Notes under the pieces: generated by a model
Told to the model about the DNA's origin: nothing
What the model saw: the letters and a program-made list of their open reading frames with translations, nothing else
Database searches by the model: none
Source of the DNA: Sedimentisphaerales bacterium
GTDB taxonomy: Bacteria > Planctomycetota > Phycisphaerae > Sedimentisphaerales > SM23-30
DNA length: 64,000 nt
Direction: 5' to 3' (one strand)
Assembly (NCBI GenBank): GCA_963666285.1
Contig: OY762711.1
Shown: one piece after another, positions 10,020 through 24,703 of the stretch
How positions within the stretch are numbered: position 1 is the stretch's first letter
Layout of the letters: each line of letters opens with the position of its first letter
Position numbers and translations under genes: made by a program

Positions 10020-11643
10020 GAGTTTTCTCAACAAATCCTAAGTTATTATTTGCAAGATTGTTAAGCTTTAAATAGAATGTTTCAAGTGAAAGATAAGTTA
10101 TCGATATTGCCCAAAACCCTTGCACCTGGAGTATTTTATGTATCGTCGCGAGCCAAAAAATCAGCTAAAATTTGAAGATTTTTACCTGCCTTTTGGCGGT
10201 CAGCTTAACCCTGAGAATCGCTGGGTAATTTTGGCTAAAAAGATAGACTGGGATCTGATAGAAGAGCTATATGTAAAGAACTTCCCCAATCCGGAAGTAG
10301 GTAATCCTGCCAAAGATTCCCGTATAGCTTTTGGCTCATTGATCATCAAAGAACGTTTGAATTTATCAGATGAAGAGACAGTAAACCAGATCAGTGAGAA
10401 TCCATATTTGCAATATTTTATTGGCTCACATGAATATGAAGATAAATGTCCTTTCGGTGATACTTCGATGGTATATTTTCGCAAACGATTTACCCGGGAA
10501 GATTATGGAATGATCAATGCAAAGATAATATCAGATTCATATGACAAACAGAATGATAGCCAGGACGATGATACAGATAAGCCAAACAGTGGCAAATTGA
10601 TTGTAGATGCTTCCTGCTGTCCTTCAGATATTACCTATCCCACAGACCTGAATCTTCTTAATGATGCTCGCGAAAAAACAGAAAAGATGATAGATGTGAT
10701 GCATAAGCCATCAATAGGCTTAAAACGCAAGCCCAGGACTTATCGTAAAAAAGCACGCAAAGATTATCTTGCCGTAGCTAAGCAGAAAAGCCCGGGTAAA
10801 AATAAGCTGCTAAAAGCTATCCGTAAGCAACTTGGCTACCTGCAGCGAAATCTCAAGATTATTGCCCAGATGGCAAGTGAAGGTCTTTTGTCTTTGCTTG
10901 ATAATATTCTTTATCGCAAACTGCTTGTTATTAGTGAGTTATATCGTCAGCAGCAATACATGTATAACAATAAGATACACACCGTATCAGATCGTATTGT
11001 AAGTATCTCCCAACCACATATACGCCCAATAGTTCGCGGTAAAGCCCGTAATAAGACTGAATTTGGAGCCAAGATATCTATCAGTTTAATAGATGGTTTT
11101 AGTTATCTTGATACTATTTGCTGGGATAATTACAGTGAATCAACAGAACTGATATCGCAAATAGAAGCTTATAAAGACCGTACTGGTTGTTATCCTGAGT
11201 CAGTCCATGCAGGCAAGACATACAGGAATCAGACCAATAGAGAGTTTTGTGCTAAAAATGGCATAAGACTATCAGGTCCGGCATTAGGTCGACCGCCTAA
11301 AGATAAGGAAAAGTCAAAAGCGATTCGAAAGCAGCAGTATAAAGATGAGATAGACAGAATACCGGTTGAAGGAAAGTTTGGTCAGGGTAAAAGGCGATTT
11401 GGTCTCGGCTTGATAAAGACAAAACTGATTAAAACAGCTGTTAGTTCAATCTCACTGGCATTCATCGTGATGAATTTAGAGAAAATCCTTAAGAATATTT
11501 CTCTTTTTGCGAGTTTATTGTGGAACATGCTGGTTGCCGGTATGCTAATTAGACGTCTAATGCCAGGCATTATAAGATTGCAGCCCAACAGTAACGCCGG
11601 GCTGCAATTGAAAATCGAAAATTATTGATTATTGAGGAAACTC
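10020..11643 (+). mobile_element. IS5-family insertion sequence with about 15-bp inverted repeats and 6-bp target site duplication TAAATA
   Basis: Left end GAGTTTTCTCAACAA vs reverse complement of right end GAGTTTCCTCAATAA (13/15); TAAATA at 10014-10019 and 11644-11649. Confidence 0.88.
10138..11628 (+). CDS. IS5-family DDE transposase (second catalytic Asp apparently changed to Gly)
   Basis: RBS GGAG before ATG 10138; FGGQLNPENRWV, LSDEETV..ENPYLQYF, IVDASC, RPIVRGK..EFGAK, VEGKFGQGKR. Confidence 0.9.
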   Translation: MYRREPKNQLKFEDFYLPFGGQLNPENRWVILAKKIDWDLIEELYVKNFPNPEVGNPAKDSRIAFGSLIIKERLNLSDEETVNQISENPYLQYFIGSHEYEDKCPFGDTSMVYFRKRFTREDYGMINAKIISDSYDKQNDSQDDDTDKPNSGKLIVDASCCPSDITYPTDLNLLNDAREKTEKMIDVMHKPSIGLKRKPRTYRKKARKDYLAVAKQKSPGKNKLLKAIRKQLGYLQRNLKIIAQMASEGLLSLLDNILYRKLLVISELYRQQQYMYNNKIHTVSDRIVSISQPHIRPIVRGKARNKTEFGAKISISLIDGFSYLDTICWDNYSESTELISQIEAYKDRTGCYPESVHAGKTYRNQTNREFCAKNGIRLSGPALGRPPKDKEKSKAIRKQQYKDEIDRIPVEGKFGQGKRRFGLGLIKTKLIKTAVSSISLAFIVMNLEKILKNISLFASLLWNMLVAGMLIRRLMPGIIRLQPNSNAGLQLKIENY

Positions 11644-16979: not shown

Positions 16980-17033
16980 TGCTATTCAGATGAAAGTTTT
17001 CATTCTTAAATAGTTAAATTATTTATATATTTT

Positions 17034-17070
17034 AAGCACCTGTATTATTTTGATGCAGGTGCTTTTTTTT
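17034..17070 (+). terminator. Intrinsic terminator
   Basis: AAGCACCTGTATTA/TGATGCAGGTGCTT hairpin with a run of Ts. Confidence 0.8.
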
Positions 17071-17204
17071 ATGATTTCAACTATGGATTAATTAATAATC
17101 GTTTTCAATACTATTATGCTATGCCTTAGGTAAAGGCTATTTTAATGGTTATAAATACTATAAATGATGTTTATTCTGCCCAAAGCGCAGCTATTTAAGG
17201 GGAG

Positions 17205-17246
17205 TGCACAAAATGACGTATAATAATGCGCAAAATCGACTTGTTA
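17205..17246 (+). promoter_or_regulatory. Tandem operator-like repeats abutting a -35-like hexamer
   Basis: TGCACAAAATGAC (17205) and TGCGCAAAATCGAC (17227), then TTGTTA; same geometry as 12570-12611. Confidence 0.45.
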
Positions 17247-17612
17247 AAAACGAGTAAATTTACGATAGTAGATATATTCTGATTAATATTAAAAATGCAA
17301 TTGTGTATTATTAGCATTCACTTAATGTTATTAATTGTGTTTGTTGTGTGAAAGATATATTTAGCTTGGATGAAATTTATAATTGTTGAGCATATTGTAA
17401 ATTTCATTAAATAGTACCCTCATACGGTGGATTTTCTTTAAGCCTATGTGATTTTATTTGAAGTAAAGTTTATTTGTAATTTTCTATTTATTTTAAAATA
17501 TGGATATCTGGGTTCAATTGTGAACCGTTTGTGTTTGGTGTTTCGAGTAGCATTACTATAAATGATAATGTGCTTTAAAGTATAATTTTGTGTTTAATAG
17601 GAGAATTTAATT

Positions 17613-18554
17613 ATGTTTTATTATGGTTCTAAAAAAGGTAAAGGATTTACCTTAATTGAATTATTGGTTGTAATTTCAATTATTGCTTTGCTGGTTTCAA
17701 TATTGATGCCATCGTTGAACAGGGCAAAAGACAATGCAAAAAGAACAGTATGTGCCAGTAACCTTAAAAGTATCGGCCAGGCTATTATGATGTATGCTGG
17801 TGACAATGGGGATAAGTTACCTAGAAATATGGATGCTCTTAATGACAGCAGTCCTTTAGCAAATCAGGAGTATAATGAGACAGGAGAAGGTTCACCTCAC
17901 AGATCATATATGATGTTTGATATCGCCGGTAACCGCAGTCTTAGCATAAAACCCTGGGATCGAATAAAGTATAGATACGGTATGGGTTATTTAATGAAGA
18001 AGTATATAGATATTCCAGAAACTTTTTATTGTGAAGGTATTCCAAGGAAGAGGCAGGGTGGCAGTGGAGATGAATTCTCATTAGCATTCAGGTTTGATGA
18101 TTATGATGCCATAGGAGGTTATCCATGGTCGCCGGATGACATGATTAACAACAATCTGATTCGTAGCAGTTTTAACTATATTCCTCAATCTCGTAAGAAA
18201 AAGGTTGCTGTAGCTTTAGACGTGCCAGGATCTTCTTATGATATGACGCAAGCGCAAGCTGATGGAGGGGTTTTTAAAGGAGGAGTTGAGTATTTCCCTG
18301 AAATAGCTACTTCTACATCAGAGTTGTATGGCGATTATTCTATAGTATCAGGTCTTATTCACAATATCGCATTTTTGCCTCATAGAATGGGTAGTGGTAA
18401 GAATGCGGCTTCTGGTATAAATGTACTCTTTGGTGATTGTAGTGTTAGATTTGGCAATGATTTACGAGCAGCACAAAGTGATCTGTGGGATACAGAAAAT
18501 TTGGGTGTGCATGAATATGCGGTTAGAAAGCTTATCTCACTTTTTGAAAAATAA
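17613..18554 (+). CDS. Prepilin-type N-terminal cleavage/methylation (DUF1559-like) protein
   Basis: [36 protein letters not shown]-terminal [13 protein letters not shown] variant of the H-X9-DG motif. Confidence 0.9.
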
Positions 18555-18635
18555 GAATATATTTTATCAGATGTAAGTATCTGTAATATAGATAGTTAAT
18601 GTGTGATTGCATTTTGAATTGTGTTTTCAAATATA

Positions 18636-18672
18636 GAGGTGTCTGACGATTTGATTGTCAGGCACCTTTTTT
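18636..18672 (+). terminator. Intrinsic terminator
   Basis: GAGGTGTCTGACGAT/ATTGTCAGGCACCT hairpin followed by a T-run. Confidence 0.78.
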
Positions 18673-18792
18673 GTTGGTTTGTTAAGGTGTTATGGAATAT
18701 GTATTTAAGTTGATAGCGTGGTTGGAGATATTGGGAAATTATAAATATGGGGCTTCAAAAAAGCTATAATAGTATGTATTATAGGAAGATAT

Positions 18793-19473
18793 ATGAACGA
18801 GCAAGATAAGCACAATCGAAGAAAACTGCTGAAAAACATGGCCAGGGCGGGTGTGCTGGCAGGTTTGTTTTCGGTCGGATATGTCGCGGCAAAGCCTGGA
18901 AGTGCCAGGTTTGTTAGTTCGTTGGCAGAAAGTGACGGTAATGGAGCTAAAAACGGCGGGCTACGGCGGGCTACGGAGGCTGACGGAGCAGGTACGGATG
19001 GTGACGGAGGTCGTGCGGCGGGCAGCGGCGGGCTACGGACGCTATGGCAGATTGACCCTGAAAAATGCACGTATTGTGGTAAATGTTCGGAGATGTGTGT
19101 ACTGCACCAATCGGCCGTAAAGTGCCTTCACAAGTCTGATATCTGCGGTTATTGCGATTTATGTACCGGATATTTTTATCCGGAGCCTTCCAATTTGGAC
19201 ACGGCGGCGGAAAATCAGGTATGCCCAACTGGCGCTATTGCCAGACGGTTTGTTGAGGAGCCATATTTCCAGTATGCGATAGATCACGATCTTTGCATCG
19301 GGTGTGCTAAATGTGTTGAAGGGTGTAGTAAATTCGGGAATGGTTCGCTGTACCTGCAGATCATGCATGACAGGTGTCTGAACTGTAATGAGTGTGCGAT
19401 AGCGGTGCAGTGTCAGTCGAGTGCGATAATACGTGTGCCAGAGGACAGGCCGTATTTTTATAAGACAGTTTAA
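18793..19473 (+). CDS. Polyferredoxin-like 4Fe-4S protein with Tat-like N-terminal anchor
   Basis: NRRKLLK plus hydrophobic stretch; CTYCGKC..C, CGYCDLC, CPTG, CIGCAKC..C, CLNCNEC..C. Confidence 0.82.
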   Translation: MNEQDKHNRRKLLKNMARAGVLAGLFSVGYVAAKPGSARFVSSLAESDGNGAKNGGLRRATEADGAGTDGDGGRAAGSGGLRTLWQIDPEKCTYCGKCSEMCVLHQSAVKCLHKSDICGYCDLCTGYFYPEPSNLDTAAENQVCPTGAIARRFVEEPYFQYAIDHDLCIGCAKCVEGCSKFGNGSLYLQIMHDRCLNCNECAIAVQCQSSAIIRVPEDRPYFYKTV

Positions 19474-19697
19474 CTGAAGACTGAAGGCTGAAAAGAGATA
19501 ATCGAAGAAATTAGAATTAATAATTAAGGCAAAATGTGTTCTTCCTCAGCTAAGGCTATGGAGGATATGTTGCGAGGTTGAAAAGAATTGCCTGGTGACG
19601 AGTGAGTTAGAATATGAGTAGTTGAGAGTGAGGGAGTATGTTTGTTTGAGATAGTGTTGTTAATCTAAGTTTCCATATAATATTAAAAAGGTGTCTG

Positions 19698-21152
19698 ATG
19701 AAAATGAAAATTGGTATGTGTTTGTTGTCGCTGGTGCTGCTGGTCTCATTTACAGGTTGTAAGAAGGAAGAGCCGGAAACGGCAGAGTCCGGGAAGGTTT
19801 CAGCTATCGTGCCGGAGGTGTCGGGGTTTGACAGGCTTAAAGAATCTGAGGGCAGCAGTGTTTTCAGCCTGGAGCGGAATCTGTCGAAAGAGGGCAGTCT
19901 CGACCTGGGTTTTGGAACGTGTCAGTGGCTGCATCCGCTGGATAAGTGTGAGGAGGAGCTGGCAGCTGAACCGGAATATGGTTCGGAAAATGTGGTATAT
20001 TACGCGGCGGGTTATGGCGATTCGACGGTTGACAGGATGCATACCTTTGTACTGGATGAGAGCGGCGGGACCGGCAGCGGTTATGATACGGTATATTATG
20101 ACCGGGATAATGATAACCGGCTGGATGGCGAGAATGAGCGGGTGAGTGTAGCAGTGGGTGACCCGGGACATTCAGACCCGGTGAGGATTGAGCTGCAGGT
20201 CGAGGTTGAGGGTGAGCGGTATCCATATTTTGTGAATTTGAGTGCGTTTACCTATAAGGATGAGAATAACCCGGTTGAGAAGGTGCATATGAACCTGCGG
20301 AACAGCTCTTATTATGCCGGGAAGGTGACACTTGATGGTAAAGAGTATGCTTTTGCGGTGGGTGATCTGGATAGTAACGGGATGTATAATGATTACGAGG
20401 AGCGAGTGTTTCGGGGTGACAGGCTGTTTGTTGACCTGAACGGGAACGGAAGTTTTAAAAGTGATGATGAGGGTGTGCCGTTCAGTCAGTATGTAAAGAT
20501 CGCCGGTAAATGGTATGAGGCTGCGATGAAGCCTTGCGGTGATGAGATAGCATTTATGCCGTATGATGGCACATTTGGGACATTGAAGGGCAGTAAGGAA
20601 TATTCGACGGTCAAGCTGTTTTCGGGGAAATTGAACCAGAAGGTTGATTTCCACGAGGGCGTGGGGCAGGTGCTGGTGGATGAATATAAACTGGTGCAGG
20701 TTGAGCTGGTTAGTATGGATGGCGATGGAAAGAGCTGGAAGATGAGGGGTGATTTTCGAGATGAGAAGCCGGAGGTGGCGGTTGTAGAAGATGGTCAGGT
20801 GGAGATGCCTAAGCTGCTGCCGATGGAGATATCTGTTACGGTGAAGGAGAATGAAAAGGGTGAACTTGAGATTGAGCATAATCTGGCCAGTGCGGCGGGC
20901 GGAGTGTTTCGGTGTCCGCGAATTGATGGCGAGAGGCCTGAAGGAAGTTTTACAATCGTAGATGAGAAGGGGCAGGTTGTACTTGAAAGCAAGTTCGACT
21001 ATGGTTGAGGCGATTTATGCGAGTACTCGTGGCGAGTACCAAGTGATCTGACCGGTAAATTTGTAGTTAAGCCTAAGATCGAGATGGGCGGTTTTGAGTT
21101 CAAGGTGATTGATACTGAGATCGAGCTTAAAGGCGGGAAGATTGTGCCGTAG
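19698..21152 (+). CDS. Lipoprotein of unknown function; probable selenoprotein with in-frame UGA at 21006-21008 (484 aa if read through, 436 aa if UGA is a stop)
   Basis: Lipobox FTGC; after FDYG-UGA the frame stays open for 47 codons (GDLCEYSWRVP..KIVP-TAG); SECIS-like hairpin at 21023-21039. Confidence 0.72.
21009..21040 (+). promoter_or_regulatory. Candidate bacterial SECIS element
   Basis: GTACTCG-TGG-CGAGTAC perfect 7-bp stem; G-containing loop about 21 nt after the UGA. Confidence 0.62.
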
Positions 21153-21490
21153 AGGGGCTTTAAAAGTATCAAGTATGAATTATAAAGTATAAAAAGAAAG
21201 GTGCTACGAATATAGGTAAGATGTAAAAGGTAAGAATTGTGGTGTTCTTGCACCGTACGGTACAGGACCTTATTTTAAATCGCCTGCGGCGAGATTACCC
21301 CTTACTGCTGTGCGTGGCTCTGACAATCTAATGCGATGTCGGGGTAATTTGAAATATTATAGAAAGGTATTGTAGTAAATTGTATAATATGAATAGAGCA
21401 AGCAGGACAATTGAGACAGTTAGAAAAAGATTTATATTCATCATGAAGGGATTGAAGGTAGTGAAGTTGAAATAAAGGATGTTGTTTTGT

Positions 21491-22825
21491 ATGAAGAAAT
21501 ATTTATGCAGTTTAATTTTAATTTCGTTTCTAACTATTACAGGTTGTGAGAATCATGATATTAATAGTGAATTTCATACGGCTGTTTTACAATCAAATGA
21601 AGAAAAAATAATTGAAATACTCGATGAAGGTTTTGATGTAAATAGCCTCGATGGTAATACAGTTGGCCGTAATGTATTACACAGTGTTTATGATCTTAAT
21701 ATTGCAAAATTATTAGTTGCCAGAGGAGCAGACCTGGAACAGCGTGATAAAGAAGGGGCAACTCCTCTTTGTACAGTCTTGCGTTTTGGCCAGGGTCATA
21801 TTGCTATGTATTATATAGACCAGGGGGCTGATATTAATGTGACCTGTTCGGCGGGAAGAACTGTTATGTATTTTGCATGCATGGGAGGAGAACCGAAAGC
21901 ATTACAATATCTTATTGACAAAGGCCTTGATGTGAACGCGAAATGCCATAATAAAACATATCCTATATTTGTAGCAATTAAATACGGAAATTATCATGCA
22001 GTAAAATGCCTGCTCGATAATGGGGCTGATTGTTTTGTTACCCATACAATTGCTGATCAATTCGATATATATCCAATACAGCAAGCGATAATAGCATATA
22101 ATAGTAAATTAAAAAACGCTAAACTGATAATTGAATTGTTGTTAAAACATATGGATATGTCACGCAAACTTAACGGAGATTGTACTTTTATACATTATGC
22201 AGTAGGTAACGATTTTTATTATGAACATGATTACATATATGATATAGCTGAACGTTCAGATATAAATTCTTTAAATTCAGAAGGGTGGTCGGTACTTGAC
22301 AGAATGGAATTGCTGAAAAATAAGAGTGAAAAACACAGGCAGTTTTATGAATATTTGCTGAAGAATGGAGCTAAGTCATTAAGAGTAAAAGGGGAACATG
22401 AGCATGATTTTATTGGAGGTGAGATTAATGAGAATAAAATTACAGCTGAGCAGGCTACATTATTAGTTGAGCAGATCATTGAAAATAAATATTCTCTCTT
22501 TGAAGATAAAGTATCAAACTATTATGCTGTTACGTGGTGTGATAAGTTGATTAGGCAAAAATATTCTGATCAATCTATAAGACTATTGGATTATCTATAT
22601 GATAATGCAGTGGATGATATTAAATTTCAAAAGTATTATTTTAGTTCGCGTGCATTAATAATGGCAGCATCTGTTGATAACGAAAAGGTATTTGACCATT
22701 TAATTAAGTTAGGGGTAGATCCAAATTCAAAATCAATAACAGGGAAAACCTTTTTTGAGTATGCAAAGGAAAAACTTAGTCCAGAGCTATGTAATAAGTA
22801 TTTAGAGCGGTTAAGTCAGGAATGA
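21491..22825 (+). CDS. Ankyrin-repeat lipoprotein
   Basis: Lipobox ITGC; repeats GRNVLH..LLVARGAD, GATPL..GADIN, GRTVM..GLDVN, LLDNGAD; AT-rich relative to its neighbours. Confidence 0.85.
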   Translation: MKKYLCSLILISFLTITGCENHDINSEFHTAVLQSNEEKIIEILDEGFDVNSLDGNTVGRNVLHSVYDLNIAKLLVARGADLEQRDKEGATPLCTVLRFGQGHIAMYYIDQGADINVTCSAGRTVMYFACMGGEPKALQYLIDKGLDVNAKCHNKTYPIFVAIKYGNYHAVKCLLDNGADCFVTHTIADQFDIYPIQQAIIAYNSKLKNAKLIIELLLKHMDMSRKLNGDCTFIHYAVGNDFYYEHDYIYDIAERSDINSLNSEGWSVLDRMELLKNKSEKHRQFYEYLLKNGAKSLRVKGEHEHDFIGGEINENKITAEQATLLVEQIIENKYSLFEDKVSNYYAVTWCDKLIRQKYSDQSIRLLDYLYDNAVDDIKFQKYYFSSRALIMAASVDNEKVFDHLIKLGVDPNSKSITGKTFFEYAKEKLSPELCNKYLERLSQE

Positions 22826-22872
22826 CCAGTTAGTTTTTGCCAGTAATTTTATTGTAATTATATTCGTTACGA

Positions 22873-23334
22873 ATGGCAATTAAAATGATTATGCTAATTA
22901 GATACATATTGGTAAAAAAACTTATAGAAAAAGCCTGGTTTATGCTTGGAGTTTTATGTGTGGGCCTATATCCAATGTTTTCATTAAGACTTTGGAATAA
23001 TATTGATATGTATCTTGTATTATTGATTATCGTTATTTCAGGGATTATTGGCTTTTTGTTAAGTAGAATCTTAGGTGAAATAATTGTATTCCCTGTTTTG
23101 CTATTGTTAAATTATTTAATAGAATTAGCAGACGGCGGTGAACTTGGTTACAATGATAGAGTTGTGGTAGTAATAGGAAAACATAAGGGTAAAGTCGGTA
23201 CAGTACGTAGTATTTGTGATACGTATAGAGAGGTTAAAGTTTATCTAGAGATAAATGAGAATCAAAGCAACTCTGAAGTATTTGATTTTGCTGCTGTTAA
23301 GATTATTGAGAAGGCCGTCAGAAATGATATTTAA
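22873..23334 (+). CDS. Small membrane protein with C-terminal KOW-like motif
   Basis: Hydrophobic N-terminal helices; DRVVVVIGKHKGKVGTV. Confidence 0.6.
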   Translation: MAIKMIMLIRYILVKKLIEKAWFMLGVLCVGLYPMFSLRLWNNIDMYLVLLIIVISGIIGFLLSRILGEIIVFPVLLLLNYLIELADGGELGYNDRVVVVIGKHKGKVGTVRSICDTYREVKVYLEINENQSNSEVFDFAAVKIIEKAVRNDI

Positions 23335-23719
23335 GGCGTCGCTGACGCGAGTATATTTTTAATGGCTATGCCGAAGAAAATAAAAAAAACACTATGAGAT
23401 CAGAGATCAGGTTGCCGGTTTCTGGGCGCAGGGAAGGAAAGCGGATATAGGTAAAAAGTAAAAGGTAAGAGGTAAGAGGTGTCTGTGTCTGGTCCTGTGA
23501 TAAGTTGACACATAAATATTTAATGTTTAGCCAAATTACAGGAGCTAAAAATTATGAAAACACGCAGGATCCTGGTTGTAGTTGATATTGCGAAATAACC
23601 CTTCTGGCGGCATTTTTGCATTATCATACTTATATATTTTTGCTTTCTTTATTTTATTATTTTATCTGTTATAATTATCTCTTAATATATATGTATAGAT
23701 AATAAAGGAGATATTTATT

Positions 23720-24703
23720 ATGAATAGGGCAATAGGTGTATTTCTAACGGTTTTATTTGTTTTTGTGGCAACAGTATTTGCATCTGAGGAAAAGGGAGGT
23801 TTTTTATTTGTTACGTTCAGGGGTGAAGGCTCGCCGATGACCGAGCAGATATATTTTATGGTCAGCCGGGACGGTAGCGAATGGAAGGCACTTAATAATG
23901 GAGAGCCGGCACTGGTGAGTACTGTAGGTGAAAAGGGGGTGAGAGACCCGTATATTATCCGCAGTCATGATAACAGTAAGTTTTACCTGATCGCAACTGA
24001 TCTTTCGATGCATTTTAAACGAGATTGGGGTAAAGCTGTGACGGTTTCCAGTAAATGTGTTGTTATCTGGGAGTCGGAGGACCTGGTGAAGTGGTCCGAG
24101 CCGAAGCTTGTCCAGGTTGCACCTGACGATGCGGGCTGTGCGTGGGCGCCGGAAATAGTTTACGATCAGGATAAGAAGCAGTACATGATATTCTGGGCGT
24201 CAACAACCGGCAGAGATGAGTTTAAGAAGCATCGTATCTGGGCTGTTAATACCTCAGATTTTGAGACTTTCAGCGAGCCATTTATCTATATCGAAAAGCC
24301 GACGACGATTATTGATACGACCATCGTTAATGATAACGGCACTTATTACCGGTTCACAAAGGATGAGAAGTATAAAGCTATTACCATGGAAAAGAGCAAG
24401 CATCTTATGGACGGCTGGGAGGGGATAGAGCAGTTTTCGCTGTCACAGATGAAAGGCTATGAAGGACCGGCATGTTTTGTTATTGAGCCGGCAGCGGGGG
24501 GGAAGTCTGCCAGGTGGTGTTTGCTGCTGGACTGGTATGCTCGCGGGAAGGGGTACCAGGCGTATATAACTGAAGATCTCAGTAAAGGTAATTTTGTCGA
24601 AGGAGAAGCAATGAAATTTCCGTTTCATCCGGTTCGTCATGGTTCAGTTATGCCGATTACATGCCAGGAGATGAACCGGCTATTGTGGAATGAGATGGAA
24701 TAA
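23720..24703 (+). CDS. Secreted glycoside hydrolase family 43 (five-bladed propeller)
   Basis: Signal peptide; GVRDP, AWAPE, IDTT, YEGP, RHGSV motifs. Confidence 0.88.
   Translation: MNRAIGVFLTVLFVFVATVFASEEKGGFLFVTFRGEGSPMTEQIYFMVSRDGSEWKALNNGEPALVSTVGEKGVRDPYIIRSHDNSKFYLIATDLSMHFKRDWGKAVTVSSKCVVIWESEDLVKWSEPKLVQVAPDDAGCAWAPEIVYDQDKKQYMIFWASTTGRDEFKKHRIWAVNTSDFETFSEPFIYIEKPTTIIDTTIVNDNGTYYRFTKDEKYKAITMEKSKHLMDGWEGIEQFSLSQMKGYEGPACFVIEPAAGGKSARWCLLLDWYARGKGYQAYITEDLSKGNFVEGEAMKFPFHPVRHGSVMPITCQEMNRLLWNEME

Follow-up and report, generated by a model that had tools for sequence, protein, structure and literature searches.

An apparently undescribed selenoprotein domain family with an in-frame UGA and a conserved bacterial SECIS hairpin in a Sedimentisphaerales bacterium and its relatives

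A gene that ends on TGA in a frame which stays open beyond it raises the question whether this TGA is a stop codon or is recoded as selenocysteine (Sec). Within the 64 000-nucleotide stretch of a Sedimentisphaerales bacterium genome that was analysed here (contig OY762711.1; hereafter the window), a 436-aa open reading frame (19698–21008) terminates with FDYG-TGA, the TGA occupying positions 21006–21008, and the same frame continues for 47 sense codons to a TAG at 21150–21152 (Table 1). This arrangement was present as the initial annotation, made from the letters of the DNA alone, had described it, and so was the gene-like coding style claimed for the extension: in a dicodon model, the extension scores 0.32 per dicodon, the gene body 0.29 and the DNA after the TAG −0.39. 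One of 226 comparable post-stop stretches, a set which includes the extension itself, reaches the score of the extension. Heptamer repeats likewise begin only 3′ of the TAG, with a period-7 repeat starting at 21163. An assembly error as the origin of the TGA was ruled out, since contigs from three runs (two samples of one study), two of which may be the source of the assembly, cover it with zero differing letters. Within positions 17000–24000 of the window no Rfam match was found, and a scan for promoters and terminators gave counts near chance, with no terminator between the stop codon of the upstream ferredoxin gene and the selenoprotein gene.

Table 1. Coordinates of the gene, its predicted protein parts and its recoding signals in the window
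Feature	Position	Strand	Remarks
Shine-Dalgarno-like AAGGTG	19688..19693	+	5′ of the ATG; from sequence
Full gene, 484 aa, U437, ending with TAG	19698..21152	+	
Signal peptide with lipobox-like F-T-G-C21	19698..19760	+	Assigned by eye
All-beta N-terminal region; three putative calcium loops (residues 135, 223, 246) resembling Dx[DN]xDG	19848..20567	+	pLDDT 91; loop motifs conserved in alignment A4; boundaries from structural match ranges
Middle beta domain, residues ~291–373	20568..20816	+	Weak structural matches, Z 6.0–6.4
Sec-bearing Ig/macroglobulin-like beta-sandwich domain, residues ~375–484	20820..21149	+	UGA in mid-domain
In-frame TGA, probable selenocysteine U437	21006..21008	+	TGA at 94/102 homologous sites
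Cys441, +4 partner of U437	21018..21020	+	Cys in 81/94 TGA sites and in 23/24 rows of A4
Bacterial SECIS hairpin, 7-bp stem, UGG loop	21023..21039	+	Possible extension to 21015–21046

Downstream of the UGA lies the hairpin GTACTCG-TGG-CGAGTAC (21023–21039), with an energy of −9.5 kcal/mol, a stem of 7 bp, a G at loop position 2 and a loop that is spaced 21 nt from the UGA. When these values are compared with the published criteria of the bSECIS consensus model, in the form in which the legend to Figure 2A of PMC13188914 sets them out, the hairpin agrees with every one of them. A 60-nt region folds no better than its shuffles (z −0.26), and z is −2.35 when a 33-nt window is selected around the hairpin. 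Of the 2972 TGA-ended frames of the chromosome, 11 combine an open extension with a stem of this kind, six of them in members of the family described below and five in non-family genes. The single site alone is not decisive and could arise by chance. Chance was removed as an explanation because the UGA, the extension and the hairpin are conserved across homologs.

A protein database search in which 7999 candidates were scored yielded 13 matches, all of which end at the same Y-G, the protein's own entry being among them and the others being 25–75% identical; every gene caller had terminated the homologs at this TGA. A family profile was built from 13 read-through domains and, compared with 301 genomes of the phylum, gave 90 matches in 36 genomes with up to nine copies per genome; 76 of these matches contain one TGA and 14 contain none. 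Seven of the 25 family-level genomes were positive, with a TGA in 32 of 32 matches. A full-length profile detected at least 47 metagenome loci, and two scans of genome contigs gave 0 and 1 locus. Pooling 97 loci and removing duplicates and rows gapped at the site left 102 distinct sites, of which 94 carry TGA, three a Cys codon, four an Arg codon and one a Glu codon; because Sec-form queries were used and the sites are mutually related, 94 of 102 is not an unbiased census. Wherever a stop codon occupies the site it is TGA (94/94), never TAA or TAG.

The motif around U reads [YF]-G-U-G-G-x-C-x-Y-S-W-R; among the 94 TGA sites, 93 have Gly at −1, 79 Gly at +2 and 81 Cys at +4, and alignment A2 combines an overall domain identity of 17–33% with an invariant motif and similarity on both sides of the UGA. 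The U-x3-C motif that the initial annotation had pointed out is hence present here and in most relatives, but its second Cys is not found in all of them. Sense-codon homologs read straight through the site. Those with Cys are a minority (three Cys codons among the 102 sites; proteins P0023, P0024, P0027, P0037 and P0038), and loss of Sec often leads to Arg, Gly, Ser, Trp or Glu instead; in database homologs, for which the protein entries give the residue only, the U position holds G, W, C, R or S. The conservation across the UGA, with UGA or Cys in its place, that would mark homologs of a selenoprotein was borne out by these sites. A homolog from Tepidisphaeraceae is among the relatives, and tandem small paralogs of the domain that lack Sec, motif and hairpin were seen at G166:C442 (L112) and G068:C26 (L113), in two genomes with TGA forms elsewhere.

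The hairpin was compared across homologs in the same way. Over 14 aligned sites, pairing in the 7-pair stem amounts to 95.8%, with 56% at most in slid controls, and four of the seven pairs show two-sided changes; the paired fraction and the covariation score were reached by none of 500 shuffles and the count of two-sided pairs by six of 500, figures for which the stem structure was derived from one of the 14 sequences and in which kinship inflates the shuffle test. With a one-base shift allowed, all six outer stem pairs are present in 88 of the 94 TGA sites at a fixed distance from the UGA, and four of the 94 have a weak hairpin with four or fewer of the six pairs. The codons flanking the loop are TCG for Ser+7 in 57 of 78 and CGA for Arg+9 in 66 of 79 sites; in the source genome (G000), TCG makes up 9% of the Ser codons and CGA 12% of the Arg codons, shares that will differ in other genomes. 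The stem is retained where the encoded amino acids change, and the full stem occurs in none of nine divergent non-TGA paralogs, even with five shifts allowed. The covariation across homologs and the agreement with the bSECIS model corroborate the earlier interpretation of this perfect hairpin, with its G-containing loop about 21 nt from the UGA, as a SECIS element.

The hairpin is also retained in three of the eight sense-codon sites (one TGT, two CGA), which are read as recent losses since both codons are one base away from TGA. The loci that combine a sense codon with an intact SECIS are L101, L096 and L097 (CGA) and L029 (TGT), and their sense codons are probably recent point losses. Decoding of a sense codon as Sec is a reported phenomenon and may be an alternative for these four loci; tRNA-Sec was not found in the genome of L029.

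The source genome encodes selA, selB, two copies of selD and a tRNA-Sec, that is, all of the machinery which the proposed recoding presupposes. It holds seven paralogs of the family, all with TGA and hairpin, one of which ends just upstream of selA. A molybdopterin oxidoreductase or formate-dehydrogenase-type enzyme was not found in this 97%-complete genome by a search that was positive in 11 of 14 controls. Heuristic selenoprotein scans of the genome were noisy and missed the second selD, so that they cannot define its selenoproteome. A strong selA is present in 32 of the 33 genomes with a TGA form, and for the two genomes with Cys forms only, selA is absent from the matches listed and no selB exceeds the cut-off; the exception, G085 (410 contigs), has TGA forms and a selB over the cut-off, with no strong selA and no tRNA-Sec found. 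As selA exceeds the cut-off in 225 of the 301 phylum genomes and related genomes are not independent, the phylum-wide co-occurrence is weak alone. It is sharper within the taxonomic family, where five of the 25 genomes have both selA and the domain, two the domain only and 18 neither; G015 and G021, which are 78% complete, have TGA forms without selA. The genes are also physically linked: by comparison of coordinates, a gene of the selenoprotein family lies within ~10 kb of selA in no fewer than 11 of the 33 genomes, 14 of the 47 metagenome loci listed contain selA, selB or selD, and selD lies in the fetched flank of eight of the 14 closest orthologs, tail-to-tail where mapped. The picture that the initial annotation had set against recoding, with homologs ending at FDYG or bearing Trp, an unconserved extension or a genome devoid of Sec machinery, did not emerge.

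One of the paralogs belongs to a Sec island (G000:C1:4437894–4448400, L009), where it lies with selA and selB on one strand, and the opposite strand carries a SaoX/SaoP-like ABC importer, a selD fusion and tRNA-Sec, followed by an ORF that looks integrase-like by eye. This selD combines a Cys-rich N-terminus with a C-terminal AhpD/CMD domain, a fusion that recurs in many loci; in L027, L060 and L063, double-cubane-like and activase genes lie immediately 5′ of it. The second selD (G000:C1:1953363–1954280, + strand; L008) has an in-frame TGA of its own near the N-terminus. In the class of G000, selA exceeds the cut-off in just three of 18 other genomes and in none of three same-genus genomes, which suggests patchy gain or loss of selA in this class. 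Further candidates for Sec were seen as well. A deiodinase-family gene present as two ORFs beside a family array (L098:8271–9962) is probably another split selenoprotein, and an exported protein of 411 aa that has U-x-C-L and a hairpin (G000:C1:4495783–4497015, + strand; L117:1284–2516, L119) is a candidate for a second selenoprotein family. Homologs of it were detected in 14 of 151 phylum genomes, six of six loci checked have TGA at this site, and neither Pfam nor NCBIfam gave a match.

We consider it very probable that the TGA at 21006–21008 is recoded as Sec (U437) and that the family exists; UGA, extension and hairpin are conserved, the machinery is present and the genes are linked to it, all in line with the read-through first proposed. 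From established SelB/SECIS biology, Sec would almost certainly be inserted at the UGA: SelB loaded with Sec-tRNA(UCA) would bind the hairpin 21 nt downstream of it, and insertion of Sec would yield a 484-aa exported all-beta protein, here probably lipid-anchored, while RF2 would otherwise terminate the chain midway through the last domain. That the TGA is instead a true stop or a nonsense mutation, followed by a non-coding extension, is how all gene callers treat it, and the five non-family cases illustrate that chance can produce one site of this kind. This explanation is barely credible given that the stop codon is TGA at 94 of 94 sites, that the extension is conserved at 17–33% domain identity with an invariant motif and that sense-codon homologs pass the site. 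The residues G, W, C, R or S of database homologs would fit a UGA read as Trp, Gly or Cys via an alternative code or a suppressor tRNA, but we regard such decoding as very unlikely. TGA terminates 438 of the 2520 long ORFs in G000 and RF2 is encoded, so that the genetic code is the standard one and an alternative code was rejected; furthermore, the sole tRNA with a UCA anticodon is called as tRNA-SeC and adjoins selD, and a genome-wide change of code would need no site-specific covarying hairpin.

In AlphaFold2 models the protein is nearly all-beta (pLDDT 84 for the domain and 91 for residues 51–484), and U437 is predicted to lie mid-domain in a glycine-flanked loop between strands. As four strands follow U437, a stop at the UGA would leave the C-terminal domain unfinished. 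The best structural match of the domain has a Z of 8.5 and an rmsd of 2.7 over 94; the fold searches returned no specific relative and the PDB sequence searches 0 and 3 weak rows. The resemblance of the modelled fold to Ig, FnIII and macroglobulin domains is generic, and no catalytic relative was found. The ~110-aa domain is mobile and carried by varied exported and membrane proteins: in a protein of 178 aa it follows a membrane anchor as the only domain, in one of 373 aa it precedes a multi-pass membrane region, and in one of 964 aa F5/8 and LamG domains and an anchor come after it; it also occurs in tandem arrays of four to five genes. The Cys forms P0017 and P0024 are fused to AhpC/TSA-redoxin domains. 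Of the 484-aa exported lipoprotein that had been proposed, the exported 484-aa protein stands, but the lipid anchor is not family-wide: the two closest homologs (P0003 and P0004) retain the lipobox Cys21, which is missing from many other orthologs, and many orthologs have a plain signal peptide without lipid anchor.

An extracytoplasmic redox module formed with the polyferredoxin encoded upstream had also been suggested. This idea found no support: the ferredoxin has no tblastn match in 92 related loci, the flanks of which span ~1.5 to 5 kb and in some cases do not reach upstream of the gene. As conserved partners, the ferredoxin, the downstream ankyrin gene and the prepilin gene were rejected, with 0, 0 and 1 (N-terminal motif only) of the 92 loci. 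The ferredoxin gene (18793–19473, + strand) encodes a 4Fe-4S protein with a twin-arginine-like N-terminus and has no obvious partner after it. Period-7 repeats flank the selenoprotein gene on both sides (19473–19492, 21163–21193 and 21216–21280), the last of them matching many other contigs and resembling a dispersed repeat element. Elsewhere in the window, a 502-aa ORF (10120–11628, + strand) looks IS transposase-like by eye, and there is a weak DUF1559 match. In the related loci, a NapH-like membrane polyferredoxin is encoded near the family gene in seven of 92, and a SaoX/SaoP-like ABC importer beside family genes in two (L077 and L033); for SaoX and SaoP, the binding protein and permease of the importer in G000 give the highest or nearly the highest scores, which lie below the cut-off. 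A recurrent neighbour combines carboxypeptidase-regulatory-like repeats with a thioredoxin-like domain without CxxC (L010:7863–9185, L027:14530–17031, L083:2127–4718 and L085:614–2998).

For the function of the domain we tentatively favour a redox role. U437 may plausibly be an exposed selenol nucleophile that cycles with C441 through a selenenylsulfide outside the cytoplasm and would have oxidants, disulfides or selenium compounds as substrates. This reading is favoured because no partner is better kept than the +4 Cys and because redoxin fusions and the NapH-like polyferredoxin recur. Against a simple redox role count the absence of the +4 Cys from 13 of the 94 TGA sites, the non-thiol residues that often result from Sec loss and the generic beta-sandwich fold, for which the searches returned no relative with catalytic activity; in addition, the neighbouring thioredoxin-like proteins lack CxxC in five of five cases checked, which weakens a redox relay through them. 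The retention of U at the same 13 sites speaks for the selenol being a surface ligand of soft metals or selenium compounds, serving capture, detoxification or delivery to an ABC importer, and not a redox catalyst. It would also agree with the SaoX/SaoP-like importer in the Sec island of G000, which recurs in L077 and L033, with the double-cubane and activase-like genes that adjoin selD in L027, L060 and L063, and with up to nine paralogs on different scaffolds, which suit a binding module; Haft and Gwadz (10.1101/2022.07.06.499078) have put forward that CU/CC motifs bind metals. Nevertheless, we think such a ligand role rather unlikely, as the importer occurs in just two of 92 loci, the Cys alone is conserved among possible further ligand residues, and the structural searches gave no specific metal-binding Ig match, with CopC and superoxide reductase as weak rows (E >0.01).

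Alternatively, the UGA might act as a selenium-dependent switch or sink, such that the domain and the anchor or sugar-binding domains downstream of it are completed only with selenium. In several paralogs an anchor, F5/8 and LamG domains or a multi-pass region indeed follow the UGA, the linkage to selA, selB and selD is tight, and non-redox residues replace Sec in sense-codon forms. A pure switch is improbable all the same, because it would not need a loop under selection (of 94 sites, 93 keep the −1 Gly and 81 the +4 Cys), and because co-transfer of a client with its machinery gives the same linkage. It is possible, if doubtful, that the mobile Ig-like Sec domain, displayed as many copies at the cell envelope, is the main reason for which the Sec machinery has been retained and that it forms, with the adjacent selD fusion, the ABC importer and the double-cubane genes, an extracytoplasmic selenium or metal pathway.

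The family adds to the selenoproteins a large group whose close database entries, as far as examined, are all truncated, and its recognition corrects the annotation of many split genes. It is unusual for selenoproteins in being a shuffled beta-sandwich, and not a thioredoxin or a molybdopterin enzyme, that is extracytoplasmic, present in up to nine copies and encoded near sel genes, and it may answer why the Sec trait persists in a genome without detectable formate dehydrogenase. The ~90 natural covarying SECIS variants provide a test set for the rules of SelB recognition.

When compared with described families, neither the protein nor 13 domains came near the cut-off of any family in NCBIfam 20.0, seven further read-through members gave only a LamG-region match there, and no Pfam family reached its cut-off for the domain or the protein. 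No such family was seen in the available part of Table 1 of PMC13188914, a 2026 list of 119 families, in which the nearest motifs are GUxG (NF049953), UGC (DUF1573) and LULAxC (TsoA) and which contains, as far as its available rows go, the families of Haft and Tolstoy 2025, where checked present in NCBIfam as well. In the accessible text of the four deep-Sep supplements (PMC12013277), YGUG and UGGTC occur 0 times, and G-U-G-G among the matches listed belongs to HesB-like and DG proteins; the BSepDB supplement (PMC13326102) is, in its accessible part, a genome list, and zero counts there carry little weight. Full-text literature searches returned no paper on the family, and its novelty may be affected by the supplements of Haft and Tolstoy 2025 and of Deng et al. 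2026. For the sources compared, the initial statement that the protein cannot be assigned to a known selenoprotein family thus stands.

With bacterial SelB/bSECIS genes the family has in common the in-frame UGA, the hairpin inside the coding region, the sel genes and tRNA-Sec; the recoding mechanism would be identical, but the protein family is a different one. The DUF1573 selenoprotein (PF07610; motif UGC in the available rows of Table 1 of PMC13188914) is likewise exported and has G-U-G and a nearby Cys, whereas the Cys of our family is at +4 and not at +2, which is Gly in 79 of 94 sites. No match to PF07610 was found in 13 domain sequences or 24 full-length ones; a DUF1573 selenoprotein sequence is present in the deep-Sep supplements. 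DUF1573 is an Ig-like beta-sandwich. The HesB-like selenoprotein and the 'hypothetical protein DG' (NF049953) share the tetrapeptide G-U-G-G, but these small proteins differ in sequence, continue as G-U-G-G-P and lack the +4 Cys. TsoA (NF045695; LULAxC in the same part of Table 1 of PMC13188914) shares the U-x3-C spacing. Neither NF049953 nor NF045695 has a match in G000 or the family members.

The fold is similar to that of MG2 (PF01835), with Z values of 7.4–7.8 to alpha-2-macroglobulin domains (4u48, rmsd 3.2 over 92; 2p9r, rmsd 3.0 over 89) and weak Pfam MG2 matches in three of 13 domains and nine of 24 members (best E 0.0025); however, beta-sandwiches in general commonly give such Z values, and the available parts of the selenoprotein lists compared contain no Sec form of MG2. 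Thioredoxin-fold UxxC selenoproteins are unlike the family, in which the Cys is at +4 and the domain model has no helix. The alpha-2-macroglobulin-type thioester motif is C-G-E-Q. Thioester chemistry, prompted by a Y-G-C-G look-alike and a weak Foldseek thioester-adhesin row (TM 0.13), was rejected since there is no Gln at +3, where the six commonest residues (T, S, L, V, F and G), none of them Gln, cover 86 of the 94 TGA sites. In the N-terminal domain of DsbD and in ScsB-alpha, a hairpin of the Ig fold carries a catalytic pair of Cys. They do not appear among the top 50 structural rows and have no PDB sequence match; the likeness is taken as one of analogy, namely an extracytoplasmic Ig fold with a redox pair in a beta-turn. 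Set beside these systems, the proteins appear to form an undescribed, widespread and multi-copy selenoprotein domain family.
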